A DNA stretch of 64,000 bases from an uncultured Clostridia bacterium (GTDB lineage: Bacteria; Bacillota; Clostridia; Oscillospirales; Ruminococcaceae): NCBI GenBank assembly GCA_944386455.1, contig CALXBC010000003.1, positions 29,872 through 93,871 on the forward strand, read 5' to 3'. Below, in pieces: positions 1,714-61,055 of the stretch. Position 1 is the stretch's first letter. Each line of letters starts with the position of its first letter. Made by a program: the position numbers and the translations under genes. The notes beneath the pieces were generated by a model. That model was not told the origin of the DNA, did no database searches, and worked only from the letters and a program-made list of their open reading frames with translations.

Positions 1714-1750
1714 TAACGGCCGGCGCCGGCTGATGATAAGAAAGGACAAG

Positions 1751-3196
1751 ATGAATACAATGGCAGAACAGAAGAAAATGGTGGAAGCCATTACTTCCAT
1801 GGATGAGGATTTTGCACAATGGTATACCGATGTTGTGAAAAAAGCGGAGCTTTGTGATTATTCCGGTGTACGCGGCTGTATGGTCTTTGAGCCGTACGGT
1901 TATGCGATCTGGGAGAATATCCAAAAGGATCTTGACGCACGGTTTAAGGCGACAGGCCACGAAAATGTCTATATGCCGATGTTTATCCCGGAAAGCCTGC
2001 TGCAAAAGGAAAAGGATCATGTCGAAGGCTTTGCGCCGGAAGTCGCATGGGTCACTCATGGCGGGGACGATAAGCTGACAGAACGGCTTTGCGTTCGCCC
2101 AACCTCAGAAACGCTGTTCTGCGAGCATTATGCGCATGTGATCCATTCCTATCGGGATCTGCCGAAGCTTTATAATCAGTGGTGCTCGGTGGTTCGCTGG
2201 GAAAAAACCACCCGTCCTTTTTTGAGAAATGTTGAATTTCTCTGGCAGGAAGGACATACCATGCATGAGACGGCAGAGGAGGCCAAGGAAGAAACGCTGC
2301 GGATGCTGAATGTGTATGCAGCATTCTGCGAAGAGAGTCTGGCCATTCCTGTTTTAAAGGGACGCAAGACAGAAAAGGAACAGTTTGCCGGAGCACAGGC
2401 AACCTACACCATCGAAGCAATGATGCATGACGGTGTGGCGCTTCAGGCCGGCACCTCTCATTATTTCGGCGATGGCTTTGCCAAAGCATTTGATATTACC
2501 TTTACCGGACGGGACAACAAACTTGCTTATCCGCATCAGACCTCCTGGGGAGTATCCACCCGTCTGATCGGCGGCATCATCATGACCCATGGTGACGACA
2601 ACGGGCTCGTGCTGCCGCCGGCGATCGCCCCGATCCAGGTTGTGATCGTGCCGGTTGCAATGCATAAAGAAGGGGTTCTGGAAAAGGCCGGCGAGCTTTA
2701 TCATCGGCTAAGCAGCTTTTGCCGCGTCAAGCTGGATGACAGTGATAATTCTCCCGGCTGGAAGTTCGCAGAATATGAAATGAAGGGCGTACCGCTTCGG
2801 CTGGAAATCGGGCCAAAGGACATTGCAGCCAATCAGTGTGTTCTGGTCAAGCGTCACAACCGGGAAAAGATGGTCGTTTCGTTGGATGAATTGGAAACTG
2901 CAATTCCTGCGGCTTTGCAGTCCGTTCATGATGGATTATATGAGAAGGCGCTGCAAAACCGGGAAAACCGGACCTATACGGCGACAAGCTATGAGGAATT
3001 CCGGCAGATTTCAGATGCACATAATGGTTTTATCAAAGCGATGTGGTGCGGGGATAAGGCCTGTGAAGAGAAAATCAAGGATGATACTGGGGTGAAATCC
3101 CGCTGTATTCCGTTTGAGGAAGAGCATTTGAGCGACGTCTGCGTCTGCTGCGGCAAGCCTGCCAAGAAAATGGTCTATTGGGGAAAACAATATTAA
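1751..3196 (+). CDS. proS: Proline--tRNA ligase (archaeal/eukaryote-like class II type)
   Basis: About 481 aa. N-terminus [38 protein letters not shown] and C-terminal Zn-binding tail ...[26 protein letters not shown] Shine-Dalgarno precedes ATG 1751. Confidence 0.93.
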
Positions 3197-3197
3197 T

Positions 3198-3225
3198 GAA
3201 AAAACCGGGGCAATGTCCCGGTTTT
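3198..3225 (+). terminator. Intrinsic terminator hairpin after proS (left copy of a duplicated hairpin)
   Basis: aaaaaaCCGGGGcaatgTCCCGGtttt sits immediately after the proS stop codon. A-tract and T-tract make it bidirectional. Confidence 0.75.
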
Positions 3226-3448
3226 AGTCTGTAGAAAAAGGGGTAAAAAATAAAAAATCGTCACGCAGGCGGACATGCGCCGCCGGAGTGACACCTTGAG
3301 AGAAAACCGGCGGTGAGCAGAGACAAAGTCTCCTGCGGAGCCGGTTTTTGACTGAAAAGGGGGGAGTCGGGGGAAAAACGCAGAACAAGGCTTTGCCGCA
3401 GTGATTGTGTTTGTCCCTCGAGAGCGTGTCAAAAAAGTCGACACGCTC
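3226..3448 (-). repeat. 223-nt structured intergenic element, copy A (second copy at 20223-20445)
   Basis: By eye about 93-95% identical to 20223-20445 in the same orientation. Contains 3-4 stable hairpins. Hairpin GTCACGCAGGCGG/CCGCC..GTGAC is followed by a T-run on the minus strand. ORFs across it are in different frames in the two copies. Confidence 0.85.
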
Positions 3449-3475
3449 AAACCGGGGCAATGCCCCGGTTTTTGT
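3449..3475. terminator. Right copy of the duplicated terminator hairpin
   Basis: aaaCCGGGGcaatgCCCCGGttttt is identical to 3201-3225 except for one base. Confidence 0.7.
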
Positions 3476-3554: not shown

Positions 3555-4697
3555 TTAGTTGCAGATAACCTTTTCTGTTTCTTTGTCAAATACATGGATC
3601 TTGTTGACGTCAAACGCAACCTGGATCTCATCGCCTGCACGGGCGGTAGAACGGGGAGAAACTCTCGCAGTCAGCGGAACTTCCTCACAGGTCAGGTACA
3701 GATAGGTCTCAGCACCCATCATTTCCGTAACGTCTACCTTACAGTTGACAACACCGGTGGTGGCAGCAGACAGATACATTTCCTCGTCCTTAATGTCTTC
3801 CGGACGAATACCGACAACGACTTCTTTGTCAATATAAGCATCCAGAACGCCATCTTTGTTCTTGGATTCCGGCAGCTCGATGAAGTATTTCACACCTCTT
3901 CTGGTCTTGGTGTCCTCGGTGCCAAACTCAATTCCGATTTTGCCGTCTTTTTTCAGCAACATTGCATCGATAAAGTTCATCTGCGGAGAACCAATGAATC
4001 CGGCAACGAAAATGTTGCAAGGTTTGTCATAAAGATTTTTAGGAGTATCGACCTGCTGAATGAAACCGTCTTTCATAACGACGATTCTGGTACCCATTGT
4101 CATAGCTTCGGTCTGGTCATGGGTAACATAAATGAATGTAGTACCCAGTTTCTGATGGAGCAAGGACAACTCGGTTCTCATCTGTGCACGCAGTTTTGCA
4201 TCCAAGTTGGACAGCGGCTCGTCAAGCAGGAAGACCTGCGGCTCACGAACGATTGCACGTCCCAGCGCAACACGCTGACGCTGACCGCCGGACAAAGCCT
4301 TCGGTTTCCGGTCGAGCAGGTGTGCAATATCCAAAATGCGGGCAGCCTCATCAACACGGCGCTTGATTTCGTCCTTTGGCGTTTTTCTCAGCTTCAGACC
4401 GAATGCCATGTTTTCAAACACGGTCATATGCGGATACAGAGCGTAGTTCTGGAACACCATCGCGATATCACGGTCTTTTGGTGCAACGTCGTTTACAAGA
4501 CGGTCGCCGATATAAAGTTCGCCCTCTGTGATCTCTTCCAAACCGGCGATCATACGCAGAGTTGTAGATTTACCGCATCCAGAAGGACCGACGAGAATGA
4601 TGAACTCTTTGTCGGTGATTTCAAGATTAAAATCAGAAACAGCGGTTACGCCGCCCGGATATTTTTTATAAATACCCTTCAAGCTCAAACTTGCCAT
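3555..4697 (-). CDS. msmX: Sugar ABC transporter ATP-binding protein (MsmX/MalK/UgpC type), orphan with no cognate permease genes adjacent
   Basis: 380 aa. Walker [25 protein letters not shown] signature, Walker [12 protein letters not shown]. Near-collinear with B. subtilis MsmX, including the MalK-like C-terminal regulatory domain. Confidence 0.9.
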
Positions 4698-17468: not shown

Positions 17469-18384
17469 GCTGTGGTTATCTGTCAGACGGCACCTTCGGA
17501 CATGGGTCCAGCTGTGTTTCACCGCCCTGACAAACGGATATCTGATGGGATTTGTCAAAGGAAAAATCTGGAAGGGACAGACAAAAGCCCTCTGCGTCCC
17601 GGGGCTAAACTGCTATTCCTGTCCGGGGGCGCTTGGTTCCTGTCCCATCGGTTCGCTTCAGGCTGTGCTGGCCAGCCGCGATCATAAGGTTTCGTTTTAT
17701 GTCGTGGGTTTTCTTCTGCTGACCGGCGCAGTGTTTGGCAGATTTGTCTGCGGCTGGCTATGTCCGTTTGGGCTTTTGCAGGACCTTTTGTATAAAATCC
17801 CGTTTGTGAAAAAGCTGCGCAGGCTCCCGGGCGACCGCTGGCTGAAATATTTAAAATATGTGATTTTAACCGGTTTCGTTATCATTCTGCCCCTGACAGT
17901 TCTGGACATTGTGGGCCAGGGACAGCCGTGGTTCTGTAAATATATTTGTCCGTCCGGCACTCTTTTTGCCGGGATTCCGCTGATTGCCTCCAATCCGCTG
18001 CTCCGGTCGGCGCTGGGATGGCTGTTTGCCTGGAAGACAGTGGTGCTGGTGGCGCTGCTGTTTCTCTCGGTTCTGGTTTACCGTCCGTTCTGCCGTTATC
18101 TCTGCCCGCTGGGCGCGGTTTACGGTCTGTTTAACCCGATTGCATTTTACCGCTTCAAAATCGATGAGGGAAAATGCACCAAATGTGGGCTCTGTCAAAA
18201 GGCCTGCAAGCTGGATATCCCTGTGTACCGGAAGCCGAACAGCCCCGAATGCATCCGCTGCGGCGACTGTAAAAAAGCGTGTCCGCATGGTGCAGTATGC
18301 TCCAGCCTGTCGAAAAAACGGCCTTCTGCACCAGTCGATGATCGGACCAAGGAAAAGGGGGAAGAGACGCCCCATGCTGACTGA
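17455..18384 (+). CDS. Membrane polyferredoxin (NapH/NosR-like 4Fe-4S binding protein)
   Basis: CYSCPGALGSCP, CGWLCPFG, CKYICPSG, CRYLCPLG plus two ferredoxin motifs, CTKCGLCQKAC and CIRCGDCKKACP. Confidence 0.82.
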   Translation: MDLGKLWLSVRRHLRTWVQLCFTALTNGYLMGFVKGKIWKGQTKALCVPGLNCYSCPGALGSCPIGSLQAVLASRDHKVSFYVVGFLLLTGAVFGRFVCGWLCPFGLLQDLLYKIPFVKKLRRLPGDRWLKYLKYVILTGFVIILPLTVLDIVGQGQPWFCKYICPSGTLFAGIPLIASNPLLRSALGWLFAWKTVVLVALLFLSVLVYRPFCRYLCPLGAVYGLFNPIAFYRFKIDEGKCTKCGLCQKACKLDIPVYRKPNSPECIRCGDCKKACPHGAVCSSLSKKRPSAPVDDRTKEKGEETPHAD

Positions 18385-18730: not shown

Positions 18731-20182
18731 ATGGGAAGGATTAATGGACGCGCGGCAGCACTGGCAGCTGCGGCTTTCCTTTTTCTGGCGGGCTGCGACG
18801 GCACTGTTTCGGCAGACCTGCCTCTGTCATCCAGTACAGGAATAGCGGATACCAGCTCCGTGCAGTCTGTGGCGTTCCAGCAGCAATCAGCGCCATCGGA
18901 GTCTTTGAATTCCTCTGTCCCGCAGGAACCGCCGCAGTCCTCTTCAGCTGTCATCAGTCCATCGGTGCAGGCCAAGGACGAGATCCTCGGTTCCCTGCGA
19001 AAAAAGCTGGACGATGCTTCACAAAAGCGGCTGGACAAGTCTTTTCTGGATTGGGTGGAAAAGCAGTATGGGCAGGAGTGCCTGTTTGCGCTGCGGGACA
19101 AGCTGTCCGGCGGAACGTGGGAGAAGGAAGACTGGCACCGTCTGACGGGAAATACATTTATTGTGCTTTGGGACGCCTATTCCGGAGTTGCAAAAAATGA
19201 TACGGTACGGACGGTCCCGGATACAGAGAATGGTTCTCTGGTGATTGAGATCACCGGCGACGTTTCGCTGGCAGACAACTGGAAGATCATGCCGGCCTAT
19301 GACCAGCGGAACAAGGGGCTGGCAGGCATTCTCTCGGAGCCTACGATCGCAGAATTGCGGAGCGCGGACATTCTGCTGGTAAACAGCGAGTTTACCTTCA
19401 GTGAGCGCGGGACGCCGATCCCGAAAAAAATGTATACCTTTCGCGCCCATCCGTCGCGGGTCAGCATCTATCATGAGATGGGGGTTGATCTGGTCTCGCT
19501 GGCCAATAATCACGCCTTTGATTACGGAGAGGACGCGTTTTATGACACGCTTGACACCCTGAAGCAGGCAGATATCCCCTATATGGGCGGCGGCAAAAAT
19601 CTGGATGAAGCCATGCGGCCGGTCTATTTTCTGGCAAACGGCCGGAAGATCGCCTTTGTGGCCGCGACCAGGGCAGAGAAGAATATTCTGACGCCCGAGG
19701 CAGGAAAGGACACGCCCGGCGTACTGCGAACCTATAATACCAAGCGGTTTCTGGAAGTCATCCGACAGGCGCGGGAAAAAAGCGATATCGTGATCGCCTA
19801 TGTGCACTGGGGACGGGAAGGCTCCCATTCTCTGGAGAAGGAACAGATCAAACAGGGACGGGAATTTATCGATGCCGGGGCGGATATCGTGGTGGGCGCG
19901 CATGCTCATGTATTACAGGGAGTAGAATTTTACAAAGGGAAACCGCTCGTATATAATTTGGGCAATTTTATCTTCAATGCAAAGACGATGGACACGGGAA
20001 TCCTGAAAATACATCTGGATCAAAACGGCGGGCTTTCCTATGAATTTGTCCCTGCGGTTCAGAAGGACTGTTATACGCAGATCGTGGACGGGACAGAGCG
20101 GGAGAGAATTTTGAAATTCATGGAAAAAATCTCGATTGATACCACATTTGGCAGTGACGGCTATTTCAAGCCGAAAAAATAG
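18731..20182 (+). CDS. CapA/PgsA-family metallophosphatase-fold lipoprotein
   Basis: Lipobox FLFLAGC. EITGDVSLADNW, LVSLANNHAFDYG and GAHAHVLQG motifs. Confidence 0.85.
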   Translation: MGRINGRAAALAAAAFLFLAGCDGTVSADLPLSSSTGIADTSSVQSVAFQQQSAPSESLNSSVPQEPPQSSSAVISPSVQAKDEILGSLRKKLDDASQKRLDKSFLDWVEKQYGQECLFALRDKLSGGTWEKEDWHRLTGNTFIVLWDAYSGVAKNDTVRTVPDTENGSLVIEITGDVSLADNWKIMPAYDQRNKGLAGILSEPTIAELRSADILLVNSEFTFSERGTPIPKKMYTFRAHPSRVSIYHEMGVDLVSLANNHAFDYGEDAFYDTLDTLKQADIPYMGGGKNLDEAMRPVYFLANGRKIAFVAATRAEKNILTPEAGKDTPGVLRTYNTKRFLEVIRQAREKSDIVIAYVHWGREGSHSLEKEQIKQGREFIDAGADIVVGAHAHVLQGVEFYKGKPLVYNLGNFIFNAKTMDTGILKIHLDQNGGLSYEFVPAVQKDCYTQIVDGTERERILKFMEKISIDTTFGSDGYFKPKK

Positions 20183-20222
20183 AAAGACTGTCCGGCAGCT
20201 GTTATCGGCTGTTGGACAGTCT

Positions 20223-20445
20223 CAGTCTGTAGAAAAAGGGGTAAAAAATAAAAAATCGTCACGCAGGCGGACATGCGCCGCCTGCGTGACACCTTGAGAG
20301 AAAACCGGCGGAGAGCAGAGACAAAGTCTTCTGCGGAGCCGGTTTTCGACTGAAAAAGGGGAGTCGGGAGAAAAACGCAGAACAAGGCTTTGCCGCAGTG
20401 ATTGTGTTTGTCCCTTGAGAGCGTGTCGACTTTTTCGGCACGCTC
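20223..20445 (-). repeat. 223-nt structured intergenic element, copy B
   Basis: Same orientation as copy A. Perfect 13-bp hairpin GTCACGCAGGCGG-acatgcg-CCGCCTGCGTGAC with a T-run on the minus strand. It begins 27 nt after the stop codon of the TPM-domain gene. Confidence 0.85.
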
Positions 20446-20471
20446 AGTCTTTTTGTTTTTCTGATAACGCC

Positions 20472-21284
20472 TCAGAAGCTGCGGCCGCCTCCGCCGTGAC
20501 CGCCGCCCCCGCCGCTGCGACCGCCGCCGGAGGAACTTCCTCCGCTGTGAGAGGATGTGTCGATATGGCGGGTCACCAGCGTGCGGTTGATGAACTGGTC
20601 ATCCGAGCGTGTAAGCTGGAGTCTGCTCTGCTGGCGGAACGGATAGGGCACCGTCTTTTCCTTCCGGTTATAAACAAGATAAACAGCCAGAAAGACGGCA
20701 CCTGCGGCTGCCAGCGGTACAATAACTGCAATCAGGATCTCAACGGGCTGATAGCCGTGGAACACCACCATGGTATCGGTAACAGGATCATACCGTTCCG
20801 TGAAGCCGTCGGCTCCTCTGACACCACCGAGCGCGTATCGCTCTGCGCTGTCCAGGAACGCTGCCGCTGATTCATAGTAATATCCGTCCGGCAGATACTC
20901 AAATATGTCGTCCAGCATGTCTTCGATATGGTCTTCATATAACCCGATCGCATACCCGTCGGTGGAAATATAGGCTTCTCTGTTGTCCATGTCGATCAGC
21001 AAAACCGCGCCGCTGTTTTGCTCACCGGTTCCAAAGCCGTGACTGTCGTAAAACTCATCTGCATAATACTTTGCGGTGTGTCCGCCGGCGTCATTGGTCG
21101 TCACAACTGCAAAATCGAGTCCGGTGCTTTCCCTTACCCGTGCGATCTGCTCCCGCAGCTGCTGCGCTTCTTCAACGGTAAAGAGAGACGCATCGTCATA
21201 CACCCGTTCACCGCTGTCAGCCGCAGCTGTCGGCAGGATCAGCAGAAGCGCCGGCAGCAGAAAAAAGAACAAGCGTTTTCTCAA
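20472..21284 (-). CDS. TPM-domain (YgcG/YdjH-like) membrane protein with Gly-rich tail
   Basis: Signal peptide, RVYDDASLFTVEEAQQL (TPM domain), a transmembrane helix, and C-terminal SSHSGGSSSGGGRSGGGGGHGGGGRSF. The likely TTG start forms a TTGA overlap with the upstream stop codon. Confidence 0.8.
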   Translation of the reverse strand: MRKRLFFFLLPALLLILPTAAADSGERVYDDASLFTVEEAQQLREQIARVRESTGLDFAVVTTNDAGGHTAKYYADEFYDSHGFGTGEQNSGAVLLIDMDNREAYISTDGYAIGLYEDHIEDMLDDIFEYLPDGYYYESAAAFLDSAERYALGGVRGADGFTERYDPVTDTMVVFHGYQPVEILIAVIVPLAAAGAVFLAVYLVYNRKEKTVPYPFRQQSRLQLTRSDDQFINRTLVTRHIDTSSHSGGSSSGGGRSGGGGGHGGGGRSF

Positions 21285-22339
21285 AACAGCCACCCCGCAA
21301 TCAGGAGAATGGCGGATAGAATCACAAAGATCCCGCCGCAAAGTGCAGACAGCTTGCCGAAGCTCACGGGCAGTCTGCCAAAAACCGTTCCGGTCTGTCC
21401 GTTCATAGCATAATAATAGGTTTTTCCGTTACTGCCCTGATAGGTCAGCACCCAAACCGGCAGCAGTGTATAATCCCAGTTTTCATTGAAAAAATGCGCG
21501 CCTGAATTGAGAGGCGTAACAGATGTATAGCCCTGCACCGTATCAAGCAGGAGCTGGCGGCTGTAAATGTTGACGTCGTTTACCACTTCCTGCTGCAGTT
21601 CTTCCCGCTCGATGTCCCGCTTTTCAGCCTGAAAGCCCGAAAGATAGGGCATCGAAAACCCGATCAGATCAGATGACTGAAAGGGCTGAACGCTTTCGAC
21701 CAGTCCCTTGTTGGCTTTTTTCAGTGCAGATTTGATGACGTCCTCAAAGTGAATATTGCCCTCGCGGGTGAGCATATAATGACTTGTTTCAATGTACTCT
21801 GTGTTGCCGGAGCGCCATCTGCGGACCCTTTCAGCCTTAGCGGTCAATGACCCGGCAACGTCGCAGTCTACCAGCCAATAAGGGAAATAAACGCCTGTCA
21901 GCTTTTCGATTTGCTTTTTGGAAAAGAAATGTTTGGGGACAAACCACTTCTTTCTTGTCCAGGCCATAAACCGTTCCATCGCTTCTTCGCGGCTGATTTT
22001 AAATGGAATCAGCTTATGGGGCATAAATTTGCCCTCCAGCCTTCCGGCCAGTACAACGGGATTATGACAGTAAAAACAATAGGTTGCCGCAGTTGTAGCA
22101 TCCACTGTGATCTCTGCGCCGCAGCTTGGGCAGGAATAAACCGCCGCTCCGGTGTCTGCGGAGACGGTCGGTGCCTCCGCGCCCTGTGCAGTATCATCGG
22201 AAGCGGATGCAGGCTGTCCTGCTTCCAGCTCTGTCTGGGTAAAGCTGCCCTGACAATAATTACAGACAAACCGCTGGGTTTCAGGATCAAAAGTCAGCTC
22301 TGCATCACAGTTGGGGCATTTAAAGGTAACAACACTCAT
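21281..22339 (-). CDS. Double zinc-ribbon membrane protein (YdjG-like)
   Basis: FKCPNCDAELTF...FVCNYCQG and YSCPSCGAEI...YCFYCHNPV ribbons, plus a C-terminal transmembrane helix. Confidence 0.75.
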   Translation of the reverse strand: MSVVTFKCPNCDAELTFDPETQRFVCNYCQGSFTQTELEAGQPASASDDTAQGAEAPTVSADTGAAVYSCPSCGAEITVDATTAATYCFYCHNPVVLAGRLEGKFMPHKLIPFKISREEAMERFMAWTRKKWFVPKHFFSKKQIEKLTGVYFPYWLVDCDVAGSLTAKAERVRRWRSGNTEYIETSHYMLTREGNIHFEDVIKSALKKANKGLVESVQPFQSSDLIGFSMPYLSGFQAEKRDIEREELQQEVVNDVNIYSRQLLLDTVQGYTSVTPLNSGAHFFNENWDYTLLPVWVLTYQGSNGKTYYYAMNGQTGTVFGRLPVSFGKLSALCGGIFVILSAILLIAGWLF

Positions 22340-22369
22340 TTGGATTGTCACGCTCCATCAATCAAAATC

Positions 22370-23731
22370 TCATTTCATATCGCTTACATCGATCGGATCT
22401 CCGCAGTTGGGACAAAACTTTGGGGCAGGCTGTCCGGCAGGCGGCTCGAAACCGCATTTCGCACATTTTATCTGCTGCGGCTTTGGTTTGCCGCAGTTGG
22501 TGCAGAATTTGCCGTTGTTCTGCATGCCGCAGGAGCAGGTCCAGCTGTTTTCCTGCGGCTTCGGCTTGCCGCAGTTGGTGCAGAATTTGCCGTTGTTCTG
22601 CGTGCCGCAGGAACAAGTCCAGCCGCCTTCCTGCTGAGGCTTCGGCTTGCCGCAGCTGGTGCAGAATTTGCTGTTGTTCCGTGTCCCGCAGGAACAGGTC
22701 CAGCCATTTGCAGCGGCCTGCTGTGCCTGCTGCTGCATCTGTTGCTGATTGGATGCGGAAGCCGCTGCGACAAAGCCGCCGCCCGCATTCATCCCGATTC
22801 CCATTCCCATAAATCCGGCCATACTGCCGTTGGGGTTGGAACCGGCCGCTTCCATTCCGCGGGCGACCGCACCCTGGACATATCCCTCACGGACAGCCGC
22901 GTCGCCCAGCATAGCGCCCTGATTGCGCATATTGATGAGCTTGGTGGATTCCTCATCATAGGATATACTGGCGATACCGACGGCCTGGATCTGCATTCCG
23001 CGGTTCTTCATCCAATCCTCGTCGAGAATGTCCCGCATGTATTTGCTCAATTCCCGTCCCTTGGACGCGACATAGGAAATGCGGGTGCCGTCAGCAGACA
23101 TCTGATTGATGGCGGACTGCAAAGCCTCTAAAAACTCAGAAAGATACTGCGTGTTGATGTCATTGATATCGACGCGGTCCATATTGCGCGGGATGGCTTC
23201 AGCAAAAAACAGCAGCGGATTCTCAATGGTGATGGAATAGCTGCCGTGTGCCCGGAGAAACAGCTCGGCATTATAAAAGTTATCGAAGTAGTTGATTGGA
23301 TTGCGGGTGCCAAATTTGATCCCCTTGATTTCCTGAAGGTTGATATAGCAGACCTTTTGCGCGGTCGGCGTCACACCGCCGTACCGGATACGGTTGAAAG
23401 CCTCTTTGAGCGAATCCCCGAATTTTCCGTTGAACATTGAGGGAAGGGAAGAATTGTCAACGGTGTAATAGCCTTCCTCAGCGGTATAATCGACGACTTT
23501 GCCCCCGTCTATCAGCATCATAAACTGGTTGGGATAAACGTGGACGACCGATCCGTTGGAAACCGTGTTTTCGGTGCCTTTTCGGTTGGAGCCGCGCTTG
23601 TCGTCCCTGCGGACCTTGACGCCGGTGGTAAAGACCGTGGTGTCACTCATTTCGTCCGGTTCGATCACCTCGAGCCACTGATCCGCCAGGTTGCCGCCAA
23701 TGGCACTGGTCAATGCTTTGATAATTCCCAT
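22370..23731 (-). CDS. SPFH/band-7-like protein (YdjI / COG4260 'virion core protein-like') with four C-terminal zinc ribbons
   Basis: MGIIKALTSAIGGNLADQWLEVIEPDEMSD... N-terminus typical of the family. The tail carries three copies of WTCSCGxxNNxKFCTxCGKPKPQ, then KCAKCGF...FCPNCG. Confidence 0.8.
   Translation of the reverse strand: MGIIKALTSAIGGNLADQWLEVIEPDEMSDTTVFTTGVKVRRDDKRGSNRKGTENTVSNGSVVHVYPNQFMMLIDGGKVVDYTAEEGYYTVDNSSLPSMFNGKFGDSLKEAFNRIRYGGVTPTAQKVCYINLQEIKGIKFGTRNPINYFDNFYNAELFLRAHGSYSITIENPLLFFAEAIPRNMDRVDINDINTQYLSEFLEALQSAINQMSADGTRISYVASKGRELSKYMRDILDEDWMKNRGMQIQAVGIASISYDEESTKLINMRNQGAMLGDAAVREGYVQGAVARGMEAAGSNPNGSMAGFMGMGIGMNAGGGFVAAASASNQQQMQQQAQQAAANGWTCSCGTRNNSKFCTSCGKPKPQQEGGWTCSCGTQNNGKFCTNCGKPKPQENSWTCSCGMQNNGKFCTNCGKPKPQQIKCAKCGFEPPAGQPAPKFCPNCGDPIDVSDMK
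22479..22715 (-). repeat. Three tandem 78-81-nt coding repeats (zinc-ribbon modules) inside the SPFH gene
   Basis: GGCTT(C/T)GG(C/T)TTGCCGCAG(T/C)TGGTGCAGAATTTGC(C/T)GTTGTTC... recurs three times head to tail. Confidence 0.85.
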
Positions 23732-23824
23732 GCTACATTCCTCCTGTTGAAGGTTATTTTTGGCCTGCTTCCATTATAGCCTGTGACCGTGTGAAATGTC
23801 AATAATTGAGCAGCGGTATGATTG

Positions 23825-23905
23825 AAAAAAGCCGGTGTTAAGCATGCGCAAAACACCGGCTTTTTCGACAGAATGAGGCAGGACAGCTGTTAGCTGTCCT
23901 GCCTT
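23825..23905 (-). terminator. Two tandem hairpins downstream of hsp20
   Basis: AGGCAGGACAGCTgttAGCTGTCCTGCCT, then GCCGGTGTT...AACACCGGC flanked by A and T runs. Confidence 0.7.
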
Positions 23906-58649: not shown

Positions 58650-58690
58650 AAAAAATCAGCGTGCAAGATTTTCACTTGCACGCTGATTTT
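58650..58690. terminator. Bidirectional terminator; its stem is identical to that of the terminator at 61019-61055
   Basis: aaaaaatCAGCGTGCAAgattttcacTTGCACGCTGatttt. Confidence 0.8.
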
Positions 58691-58715
58691 CCATTCGGTT
58701 ATCTATAACGGCTGG

Positions 58716-60497
58716 TTATATTTTTCTTTTTCTGCGAACTGCCGGGAAGACGCCAATCGCCGTTATTGCAGCCAGAAGACCGGCCGCAGCACAGACCGGT
58801 GCTTCTGCACCTGTGTCAGGCTGCCCTTCTGTCGGTTTGCTTTCGGTATCTGCAGAGTCCGGACCTAATGCTGCAATCTGCTCTGTTTTTTGATACCCAC
58901 ATTCTGTGCAGGTCTGTACCTTTGTGCCTTCCTTTGTTTCGGTCGGTTCATCGGTCACAATCCAATCGCCGAACTTATGCGTTTCTTTTTCGGTTGTTTC
59001 GCCGCAGAATGTACATTCTTTCCAATGCTGGTTTTCATTTTGCTTCCATGGGGACCATTCATGCACATGCGTCCATTGAGCGGTGTAAACAGCATCGGCT
59101 GATACTGTTTCGGATACTGCCGGCGTCCAGCCGTCAAACCGGTAGCCGTCACGGGCAGGAGCGCCGTCAAATTCGGGAGTTTGCGCACCCTGCACCAGTC
59201 CGCTGTAAACCTGATCTTCAAAAATGTCCTCGTCTGCAACGCCGTCCGTATAAGTAACAGAAAAAGCCCTGACCAGCTCCCATTCCTTTTTGTCCTGACT
59301 GTCTTTTGGCATGATTACCGCGCCGATCTTGTTTTTTAAAGTAAACGTGCCGCTGCCGGATGCCCCGGCGGTAATGTATGTTCCCGGCTTTACGCCGTCG
59401 ATCACGTCTTCTCCCGTATCTTTTCCCGGTATGATTTCGATCATTGTTTCACCATGAACTGCACCTGGAACGGCAAATTTTGCTCCGGAGTCCATTATGA
59501 TGGTGCCGCCGCCGTAAAAATCTCCTGTAACTCCCTCGGAAAGAGAGTTCATCAGGCAAAGAGTTCCGCCCTTTGCGACGGACAGGTCGATGATGGATGC
59601 CGGATAGATGCCGCCGTCTTCCCAGCCGTCCCAAAAGTCTCCGTCCCCGCTTAGTGTGAGATATCCGCCGTCCCGGACTTCGAGTTTTCCCATGACGATC
59701 CCATAATTATAGCTGTCGATCCCCTTGATTTGTGTTGGATTGTCCGCAGAACCGTCAATAATATAGTATTCTGCATCTTTTCCACATTCACTGACGCCAA
59801 GACATTCCACAACTACGCCGCCGGATAGAAAAATTTCTGCATCCAGCCCGGTATTATCTGCAAATCCGTTGGGGATAATTTCTGTATACCGGCCGCTTTG
59901 GATTTGTATGGTGTTTCCGGCTTCTGGCTCCGTTGGAAGCGGGGGATAAATGGTGGCGCTGCCTGCCGCAACACATGGATAAGGCGTGTAAGAACTGTTT
60001 GGATAGGGCAGCATCGTCATGTTTGCGCCGATCGTCAGATCATGCCCGTTGGCGTATAGACTGAACATTCCGATACTGCTGGTGTTTTTGCTGCAGTCAA
60101 TGATCAGATTCTCCATAACCGTGTCTGCGCCAAAGGAAAGTGCTGTCATACTTGCTTCGCCGGGAATCAGTGTTCCGCGCTCATCCGTTTCGTCATAGTC
60201 TCCGGAAATGGTAACGGCCTTTTCTGACAGCGGAACAAAGGAATCCGGAACCGTGCTGGTCCCCGCGACAATAATTTTGCTTTCGTCCGGAACCAGCTCA
60301 TAAGCCTTTTCCCAAGTTTTTACTGCGGTCTGAACACTGCTGCCGTCATTGCTGTCGTTCCCGCTGTCGCTGATATAAACCACAGCAGCTTCATTAGACT
60401 GAGCATAGGCAATGCCTCCTGCCGCTGTAATCATAAGTGCAAGACAGAGACATGCCGCCCAAAAGCGCCTGAGAGGAATTTCCTTTTTCATAATCAT
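58716..60497 (-). CDS. Cell-surface protein with signal peptide, beta-helix-like region, Listeria/Bacteroides-type repeat and C-terminal sorting-signal-like anchor
   Basis: Signal peptide ...LCLALMITAAGGIAYAQS. Repeat RDGYRFDGWTPAVSETVSADAVYTAQW. The C-terminus is QPDTG, then 24 hydrophobic residues, then RRKRKI. Confidence 0.75.
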   Translation of the reverse strand: MIMKKEIPLRRFWAACLCLALMITAAGGIAYAQSNEAAVVYISDSGNDSNDGSSVQTAVKTWEKAYELVPDESKIIVAGTSTVPDSFVPLSEKAVTISGDYDETDERGTLIPGEASMTALSFGADTVMENLIIDCSKNTSSIGMFSLYANGHDLTIGANMTMLPYPNSSYTPYPCVAAGSATIYPPLPTEPEAGNTIQIQSGRYTEIIPNGFADNTGLDAEIFLSGGVVVECLGVSECGKDAEYYIIDGSADNPTQIKGIDSYNYGIVMGKLEVRDGGYLTLSGDGDFWDGWEDGGIYPASIIDLSVAKGGTLCLMNSLSEGVTGDFYGGGTIIMDSGAKFAVPGAVHGETMIEIIPGKDTGEDVIDGVKPGTYITAGASGSGTFTLKNKIGAVIMPKDSQDKKEWELVRAFSVTYTDGVADEDIFEDQVYSGLVQGAQTPEFDGAPARDGYRFDGWTPAVSETVSADAVYTAQWTHVHEWSPWKQNENQHWKECTFCGETTEKETHKFGDWIVTDEPTETKEGTKVQTCTECGYQKTEQIAALGPDSADTESKPTEGQPDTGAEAPVCAAAGLLAAITAIGVFPAVRRKRKI

Positions 60498-60611
60498 TGT
60501 TCTTTCATTGATATTTTTACTGCACATCATCAGAGGCAGTAGAAAAGCGAAAAAGAAACAATTTAAAATTATTACTATAAGTGTATTTTAAAACAAAAAC
60601 ACAATTATGTC

Positions 60612-60627
60612 AAGTGTAAATACACTT
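60612..60627. promoter_or_regulatory. Candidate operator palindrome between the divergent surface-protein and XRE genes
   Basis: AAGTGTA-aa-TACACTT, with a related half-site AAGTGTATTT at 60579-60588, in a very AT-rich spacer. Confidence 0.4.
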
Positions 60628-60687
60628 GTAATAGCTTAATTACTATTGGCATTTCCGATAATCTATTAATAAGGAAGTGATGCTCTG

Positions 60688-61020
60688 ATGGTAAATGATT
60701 ACTCTCTCATCGGCAGACGTCTGGCAGCTTTTCGCAAGGGAAAGAAGCTGACACAGGAAAAGCTGGCCGAACGCACGGACCTTGCTAATAACTATATATC
60801 CAATATCGAAAACAACCGGTCTATTCCAAGCTTGGAGACTCTCGTCAAGCTCTGTACTGCTTTGGATATTACGCCGAATGATTTGCTGATTGGAACGTCT
60901 AATATTTCCAAAGACTATTTGACGGATGAATTATATGATAAGATCAAAAACTGTACCCCAAAGGAAAAAAGACTGATTGACGGATTCATTCAATTGCTGA
61001 TGACGGAACGGGATAAATAA
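60688..61020 (+). CDS. XRE-family HTH transcriptional regulator (110 aa), low GC
   Basis: IGRRLAAFRKGKKLTQEKLAERTDLANNYISNIENNRSIPSLETLVKLCTALDITPNDLL. Confidence 0.88.
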   Translation: MVNDYSLIGRRLAAFRKGKKLTQEKLAERTDLANNYISNIENNRSIPSLETLVKLCTALDITPNDLLIGTSNISKDYLTDELYDKIKNCTPKEKRLIDGFIQLLMTERDK

Positions 61021-61055
61021 AAACAGCGTGCAATTCAAAATTGCACGCTGTTTTT
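61019..61055. terminator. Bidirectional terminator shared by the XRE gene and the convergent radical SAM gene
   Basis: aaaaaCAGCGTGCAAttcaaaaTTGCACGCTGttttt. Confidence 0.8.

Follow-up and report, generated by a model that had tools for sequence, protein, structure and literature searches.

Two copies of a 223-nt element lie in the 64,000-nt stretch of DNA analyzed here (the window), in the same orientation and each between a pair of convergent genes, as was confirmed from the neighboring genes: copy A is flanked by the genes for ProRS and an ABC ATPase, and copy B by a PGA_cap gene and a TPM-phosphatase gene (Table 1). The copies align from end to end, with 93% BLAST identity over 223 nt, in agreement with the original prediction, made from the letters alone, that a highly structured, non-coding element recurs at these two sites. 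All three hairpins that it had named were found again, namely AAAACCGGC...GCCGGTTTT, GAGCGTGTC...GACACGCTC, and a GTCAC..GTGAC hairpin, perfect in copy B but interrupted by an internal loop of 3 nt (GCA/GGA) in copy A and the majority of the others. The folding energy was -88.3 kcal/mol for the plus strand (z = -5.0 relative to shuffled sequence) and -75.4 kcal/mol for the minus strand (z = -5.4). The proposed minus-strand intrinsic terminator, i.e., a hairpin followed by GATTTTTTATTTTTT, was also flagged by a consensus scan. A 1-nt indel separates copies A and B, and many more indels are found among the other copies; thus, no reading frame is maintained, and the element is indeed non-coding. 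It also proved, as supposed, to belong to no known Rfam family, since a search of 3226-3448 with the Rfam covariance models at E<=10 returned zero matches inside the element and only a chance-level match overlapping its right end.

Table 1. Features of the two element copies and their surroundings (window positions)
Feature	Position	Strand	Description
ProRS gene	1733-3196	+	neighbor of copy A
Left TSD of copy A	3202..3225	.	ProRS/ABC-ATPase terminator hairpin AAACCGGGGCAATGTCCCGGTTTT, 1 mismatch to right TSD
Element copy A (putative MITE)	3226..3448	+	subfamily A, 223 nt; left TIR to right TIR
Copy A, left TIR	3226-3239		first C lost, or C->T at 3225
Copy A, hairpin 1	3260-3292		invariant core GGCGGACATGCGCCGCC
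Copy A, hairpin 2	3303-3349		terminator-like in both directions
Copy A, G-runs	3359-3364 and 3369-3373
Copy A, hairpin 3	3368-3420
Copy A, hairpin 4	3422-3448		terminal palindrome, right TIR inside
Right TSD of copy A	3449..3472	.	AAACCGGGGCAATGCCCCGGTTTT, then original T-tract
ABC ATPase gene	3555-4697	-	neighbor of copy A
PGA_cap gene	18731-20182	+	neighbor of copy B
PGA_cap gene terminator hairpin	20185..20222	.	AGACTGTCC...GGACAGTCT; directly left of copy B
Element copy B (putative MITE)	20223..20445	+	223 nt, 93% identity to copy A; without whole-hairpin duplication
TPM-phosphatase gene	20472-21284	-	neighbor of copy B
Solo IS-type end	23831..23875	-	hairpin GCCGGTGTT...AACACCGGC, then TTTTTCGACAGAATG = TIR on minus strand

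The statement that the element is present twice holds for the window only. In the source assembly (2.14 Mb in 59 contigs, 97.8% complete), BLAST retrieved about 38 full-length copies with 84-100% identity, which supplied the copy number that the original prediction had left to a genome-wide search, together with partial matches that have in common only the first ~60 and the last ~110 nt. A search with the terminal motifs recovered further subfamilies with the same ends and other interiors, measuring ~305, ~176, 327, 99 and 85 nt; when the subfamilies with common ends are counted, the genome holds about 50-60 elements, ranging from 85 to 327 nt. The GGACATGYGC motif is largely confined to them, as 61 of its 68 genomic occurrences sit inside these elements. 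The element was also found, at 80-88% identity, in each of the other four species of the genus, and a diverged copy was found in one other genus among the 56 sampled. The latter, a single copy at L035:1475-1690 (genome G013), lies in the gyrB-gyrA spacer, is oriented with transcription, and shows no evident hairpin duplication; it could be old, or possibly domesticated. When 185,579 species genomes were scanned for the terminal palindrome, it was found mainly in gut MAGs of the Oscillospiraceae/Ruminococcaceae type, and also in the cultured Acetanaerobacterium elongatum and Angelakisella massiliensis, in both of which related elements are flanked by perfect hairpin duplications (25 bp at the A. 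elongatum MITE).

Alignment of all copies with 50 nt of flank placed the borders of the element. The consensus of the left terminal inverted repeat (TIR) is 15 bp long and reads CAGTCTGT(C/A)GAAAAA, while the right end reads ...TTTTTCGACACGCTC, i.e., GAGCGTGTCGAAAAA in the inward direction. The TIRs are imperfect, left CAGTCTGTCGAAAAA and the inward right end being identical at 12 of 15 positions, and they are conserved in all copies. Immediately outside them, the flanking repeats consist of a complete terminator hairpin, which is a different, locus-specific one at every duplicated site. When 19 bp or more and no more than three mismatches were required, a target-site duplication (TSD) was detected in 28 of the 49 elements with paired ends; the TSD length ranges over 21-33 bp with a median of 28.5, and 14 TSDs have no mismatch. 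All 28 fold as hairpins with -11 kcal/mol or better, and in 15 the TSD is the exact stem-loop without unpaired ends. A-tracts precede the left TSD copy and T-tracts follow the right one, matching what is expected of intrinsic terminators. At copy A, the TSD is 24 bp long with one mismatch. A long TSD is missing in copy B (only 5 bp) and in about a fifth of the copies: the terminator hairpin of the PGA_cap gene has no repeat on the right side of copy B, where only the AGTCT of 20218-20222 recurs, at 20446-20450. Such copies need secondary deletion, recombination or a second mode of insertion to account for them.

Regarding gene context, a long-ORF heuristic placed 16 elements between convergent, 15 between tandem, and 4 between divergent genes. 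In the tandem settings, the element runs with the genes six times and against them nine times, as read from the context table; this mixed orientation relative to the neighboring genes gives no support to a 3'-UTR module, which had been one of the options offered for the element. A separate observation concerns the loops. The loop of the terminal palindrome (3430-3438 as compared to 20430-20438) is flipped in 5 of 38 copies, reading AAAAAGTC versus GACTTTTT, and at some duplicated target hairpins the loops of the two copies are mutually inverted. The flipped loops suggest hairpin-mediated template switching. One additional TIR-like motif, at window position 18303, lies within coding sequence and was taken as a chance occurrence.

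The site of copy A was then compared among same-species contigs, obtained from other samples, in which the encoded ABC ATPase is identical, and empty, filled and differently filled alleles were found, documenting the insertion polymorphism that the original prediction had proposed to look for. Five contigs (L188-L192) have the empty site, with a 111-bp ProRS spacer and one hairpin, ...GGAAAAACCGGGGCA(A/T)TGCCCCGGTTTTTGTTTGG...; in these alleles, the hairpin that makes up the left TSD of copy A is present in a single copy. Contig L187 carries the window allele, i.e., hairpin, 223-nt element, and hairpin again, in a spacer of 358 bp. In L186, a member of another subfamily (~305 nt) occupies the very hairpin used by copy A, in the opposite orientation and with a duplication of ~27 bp. 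These alleles show that the element has moved recently, that the hairpin is its target and is duplicated as a whole, and that insertion is independent of orientation. It is unlikely that the empty alleles arose by precise deletion, because two different inserts share one hairpin. The corresponding region in the four sister species was uninformative, as both the synteny and the terminators differ there.

For copy B, the contigs found represented the same strain or were broken at the MITE, apart from L199. In this contig, which belongs to another strain, the left junction of copy B is the same, and on the right the copy lies directly against the terminator of an HSP20 gene; in the window, the HSP20 terminator lies 3.4 kb beyond copy B, past the genes for a TPM-phosphatase, a zinc-ribbon protein and an SPFH/Band-7 protein. 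The intervening 3.4-kb segment (20446-23875, or G000:C3:50317-53746) is bordered on one side by copy B and on the other by a solo IS-type end, and is absent in L199. Copy B is, therefore, a border of strain-level structural variation. The solo end adjoins the HSP20 terminator hairpin, and its layout is that of the right ends of intact IS1182 copies. Elsewhere in the window, two terminators 2.4 kb apart (58657-58685 and 61024-61050) have near-identical stems (CAGCGTGCAA), and delimit a 2.3-kb islet (58657-61050); its borders have no TIRs of the family, and no link to the element was found.

A potential source of transposase was sought with the Pfam DDE_Tnp_1_6 profile in 60 genera of the same bacterial family. 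Genes of the IS1182 type were found in seven of the genera, and two of them reside in complete insertion sequences (ISs) with matching or closely similar ends. The ends of the first, L054 (in G027), are CAGTCTGTCGAAAAAGG and CAGTCTGTAGAAAAACC and fit the MITE consensus at 15 of 15 positions; those of the second, L055 (in G034), are CAGCTTGTAGAAAAACC and CAGCCTGTCGAAAAAGG, close variants that differ at two and one of 15 positions, respectively. Both ISs are flanked by hairpin duplications, of 25 bp in L054 and 39 bp in L055. Their proteins contain the Pfam domains DUF772 and DDE_Tnp_1_6, and score 397 bits (L054) and 389 bits (L055) against the NCBIfam model of the IS1182 family, NF033551, for which the cut-off is 270. 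The genome that contains the window has itself retained a decayed IS1182 remnant at G000:C4:23949-24139, comprising the last ~45 codons of the transposase (ADAREKHAMRYTPCRGLSQVTN); this C-terminus is followed by a hairpin and then by a right end, TTTTTCTACAGACTG, that is identical to the left terminus seen in copies A and B and matches the MITE end at 15 of 15 positions. Neither the 97.8% complete assembly nor any of the genus's four other species yielded an intact IS1182 transposase. It is to be noted that multi-copy ISs are often lost from MAGs, and hence this absence is weak counter-evidence.

Several other candidates for an autonomous relative were rejected. Places at which TIR-like motifs are paired 0.7-6 kb apart, on contigs C9, C34 and C27, turned out to be ordinary genes beside MITEs; the DDE_Tnp_1 matches in the genus were IS5-like and had no matching ends; and a search of the genus for ISL3 transposases gave zero matches. 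A multi-copy IS1182-like IS was also noticed in A. elongatum CGMCC 1.5012 (G089), with ends CAGACCGCTGACAAA and CAGATTACTGACAAA, which are related to those of the MITE without being identical, and with hairpin flanks; the draft assembly of this strain is broken by the IS, as seen at the ends of contigs C14, C17, C31, C32, C36, C42 and C49.

Overall, the element is best explained as a non-autonomous DNA transposon (MITE) that is moved in trans by a DDE transposase of the IS1182 family, a reading to which we assign a probability of roughly 0.9 on the strength of sequence comparison. The terminator-seeking miniature mobile element listed among the original options is thereby borne out: the family has TIRs, its TSDs have the length of hairpins, filled and empty alleles coexist, and two independent insertions have used one hairpin. 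The ends are identical to those of IS1182 elements with the same footprint, and the genome has a decayed IS1182 remnant of its own, which together point to mobilization by an IS1182-type transposase. In the mechanism that we propose, a dimer of this transposase would bind both 15-bp TIRs and would select its target by DNA shape and not by sequence, namely, an inverted repeat that can be extruded as a hairpin or cruciform; in practice, such targets would be the intrinsic terminators behind genes. Extrusion of the hairpin would bring the two feet of the target together for attack, two strand transfers would probably take place at the 5' feet of the stem, and repair synthesis would copy the whole stem-loop to both sides, leaving a TSD as long as the hairpin, 21-33 bp in this genome. 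That the TSD length follows the hairpin size suggests recognition of shape rather than of a fixed spacing on B-DNA. Since both sides retain a terminator, and terminator-like hairpins are also part of the element itself, the insertions should be nearly harmless to the host. Nearly neutral insertions of this kind would be expected to accumulate downstream of genes, especially between convergent ones. The duplicated hairpins would be available as targets again.

Could a different enzyme, or a different kind of repeat, account for these findings? A transposase of another family with a hairpin-duplicating habit might move the element, the match to the IS1182 ends being convergent. The model for such a mover would be IS1630 of Mycoplasma fermentans, an IS30-family element for which duplication of variable inverted repeats, 16-26 bp long, is described (Calcutt, Lavrrar and Wise 1999, J Bacteriol 181:7597, as cited in PMC3317919), and the zero count of intact IS1182 genes in the genus would also favor it. 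However, it would have to be by coincidence that the MITE ends match two intact IS1182 elements with the same footprint, L054 perfectly and L055 with its two and one differences, and again the genome's own remnant at all 15 positions, which makes this account very improbable. Equally, the hairpin-rich makeup, the palindromic terminal segment and the intergenic location would suit either a repeat of the REP/PATE type, moved as single-stranded DNA by a Y1 transposase (IS200/IS605 or RAYT), or an immobile structural repeat of the host. Y1 elements, i.e., the IS200/IS605 PATE and REP/RAYT elements, have no TIRs and no TSD, and insert 3' of a short specific motif, whereas the present element has TIRs as well as long TSDs, and its ends match those of a DDE IS; an immobile repeat, for its part, is contradicted by the empty and filled alleles, which demonstrate mobility. 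In practice, the REP/PATE reading is refuted by the TSDs and the end match, and we regard the chance of either kind of repeat as negligible.

Beyond the ends, nothing is common to the MITE and the IS copies, and this unrelated interior argues against a simple deletion derivative of the IS. The interiors of 43 copies from at least six genera were aligned. The alignment supported four hairpins, with 96% of the cells paired, and the covariation test that the original prediction had suggested was positive: 33 of the 61 pairs had changed on both sides, in comparison to 12-18 when the structure was slid as a control and 10.6 +/- 2.3 in shuffled alignments (0 of 500 reached the observed value). In hairpin 1, a covarying outer stem encloses the invariant core GGCGGACATGYGCCGCC, and two G-runs are conserved. 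The ~176-nt subfamily shows the same architecture, with the GGACATGYGC motif on a different stem. None of the three intact IS copies that were inspected contains this hairpin-1 motif, which thus does not serve simply as a site for the transposase; L054 and L055 have no hairpin 3 either. As modeled by alifold, the conserved fold fits the plus strand better (-89.5 kcal/mol) than the minus strand (-49.5 kcal/mol); the ratio of G.U to A.C on the plus strand is 146:14, due mostly to a few fixed G.U columns, and the prediction method favors G.U. Among the copies of this genome, private substitutions are only slightly less frequent in paired columns (0.32 per column) than in unpaired ones (0.475 per column), and those in stems (15 G.T, 10 A.C and 8 others) break pairs without strand bias. 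With such near-neutral decay of the stems, single copies look like decaying selfish DNA, and the constraint on the interior acts at the level of the lineages that are still transposing.

The MITE may also carry a working RNA, which would be compatible with its being a transposon and would retain the small RNA gene of the original options; in view of the evidence on both sides, we consider it unlikely. In one form, the RNA would be a minus-strand sRNA of ~150 nt, transcribed from a vestigial IS-type promoter in the right end to hairpin 1 and its U-run, and would expose a C-rich stretch resembling an anti-Shine-Dalgarno sequence; in the other, it would be a structured RNA of the plus strand. The consensus scan did reveal one weak promoter-like site on the minus strand, TTGACA-17-CACAAT in copy A, where most other copies read TCGACA in place of TTGACA, in addition to the terminator, and the features of the minus strand follow each other in the same order as in the IS (end, hairpin, promoter-like site ... 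terminator hairpin, other end). These features make a short, vestigial minus-strand transcript plausible, with a poorly conserved -10 element. On the other hand, the key A2 of the -10 hexamer is not preserved in other species according to the cross-genus alignment, and the better fit of the fold to the plus strand also weighs against the minus-strand sRNA. For a working RNA of either strand, the cross-genus covariation, the invariant core with the two G-runs, and the lack of the hairpin-1 motif in the IS copies are favorable; the almost neutral gain of stem-breaking changes and the mixed orientation relative to genes are not. A more specific proposal, and in our estimate quite a doubtful one, is that the four-hairpin interior, including the two G-runs and the invariant core GGCGGACAUGYGCCGCC, functions in single-stranded form and is carried to terminators by the MITE as a module; it may then be an RNA that serves the cell or regulates the element, or a cis-acting signal that is read as single-stranded DNA. 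If the latter were true, this IS1182 clade would transpose via hairpin or single-stranded DNA intermediates. Alternatively, the interior may merely render the insertions harmless by stopping transcription in both directions.

Returning to the transposon reading, the principle is not new, as the targeting of hairpins by IS1182-family elements and the duplication of hairpins by IS1630 are already published. The closest relatives in behavior are IS1272/TnSha1, members of the IS1182 family in staphylococci, which repeatedly insert into terminator hairpins, in either orientation and with no consensus in the target sequence (PMC4923244). They resemble the partners of the MITE in transposase family, in the use of mostly terminator hairpins, and in independent repeat insertions (PMC4923244, PMC5678879). 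However, IS1272/TnSha1 deletes the hairpin rather than duplicating it (PMC4923244), part or all of it being removed, whereas the MITE, which is gene-less and only 223 nt long, is flanked by duplicates of the whole hairpin. The route proposed here, by which a whole stem-loop is duplicated, has been drawn as pathway b in Fig. 13 of PMC5678879. IS1630 is alike in its hairpin-type duplication, but differs in being autonomous and in its transposase family. L054 and L055 share with the MITE the same (L054) or variant (L055) 15-bp ends, the whole-hairpin duplications, and a hairpin plus T5 at the end, and differ from it in their size of ~1.5 kb and in encoding a transposase of 466-487 amino acids. 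The SPRITE, BOX and RUP repeats of pneumococci and other bacterial MITEs are likewise small, multi-copy, intergenic, structured and terminator-like (PMC10969869, PMC3049150); the ends of these repeats are different, and no whole-hairpin duplications are described for them in the review consulted.

Structured intergenic repeats and duplicated terminators form a large class in gut genomes of the Oscillospiraceae type, which the element explains; their proper annotation is as mobile DNA rather than as sRNA genes. The elements also break MAG assemblies and flag structural variation at the strain level. The approximately 28 natural hairpin-length duplications, along with the empty and filled alleles, inform the little-studied shape-directed targeting by IS1182-type transposases, in which the duplicating mode complements the hairpin-deleting mode of IS1272. 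Of possible interest, too, is the interior, which is deeply conserved without having come from the IS.

Some unusual arrangements of the elements were also noted. Palindromes of 27 nt that consist of two abutted ends only, e.g., GAGCGTGTCGACTTTTTCGACAGACTG, are terminator-like and lie behind genes; they occur at G000:C22:12644-12670, at about C9:61983-62009 and about C37:2254-2280, and in G003:C139 (L178), and may have arisen by extreme deletion or as junctions between two ends. Clusters of elements are found at G000:C1:128528-128843, C13:51704-52785 and C18:30239-31605. The C1 cluster consists of successive insertions into a duplicated hairpin, and in C18 two inverted copies surround an ORF of 237 amino acids, in an arrangement like that of a composite transposon. 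Lastly, in a sister species (L041, G004:C103:5700-8900), a MITE is located on either side of dnaA, and the downstream one is flanked by a duplicated, weak 18-bp hairpin that overlaps the dnaA stop codon.
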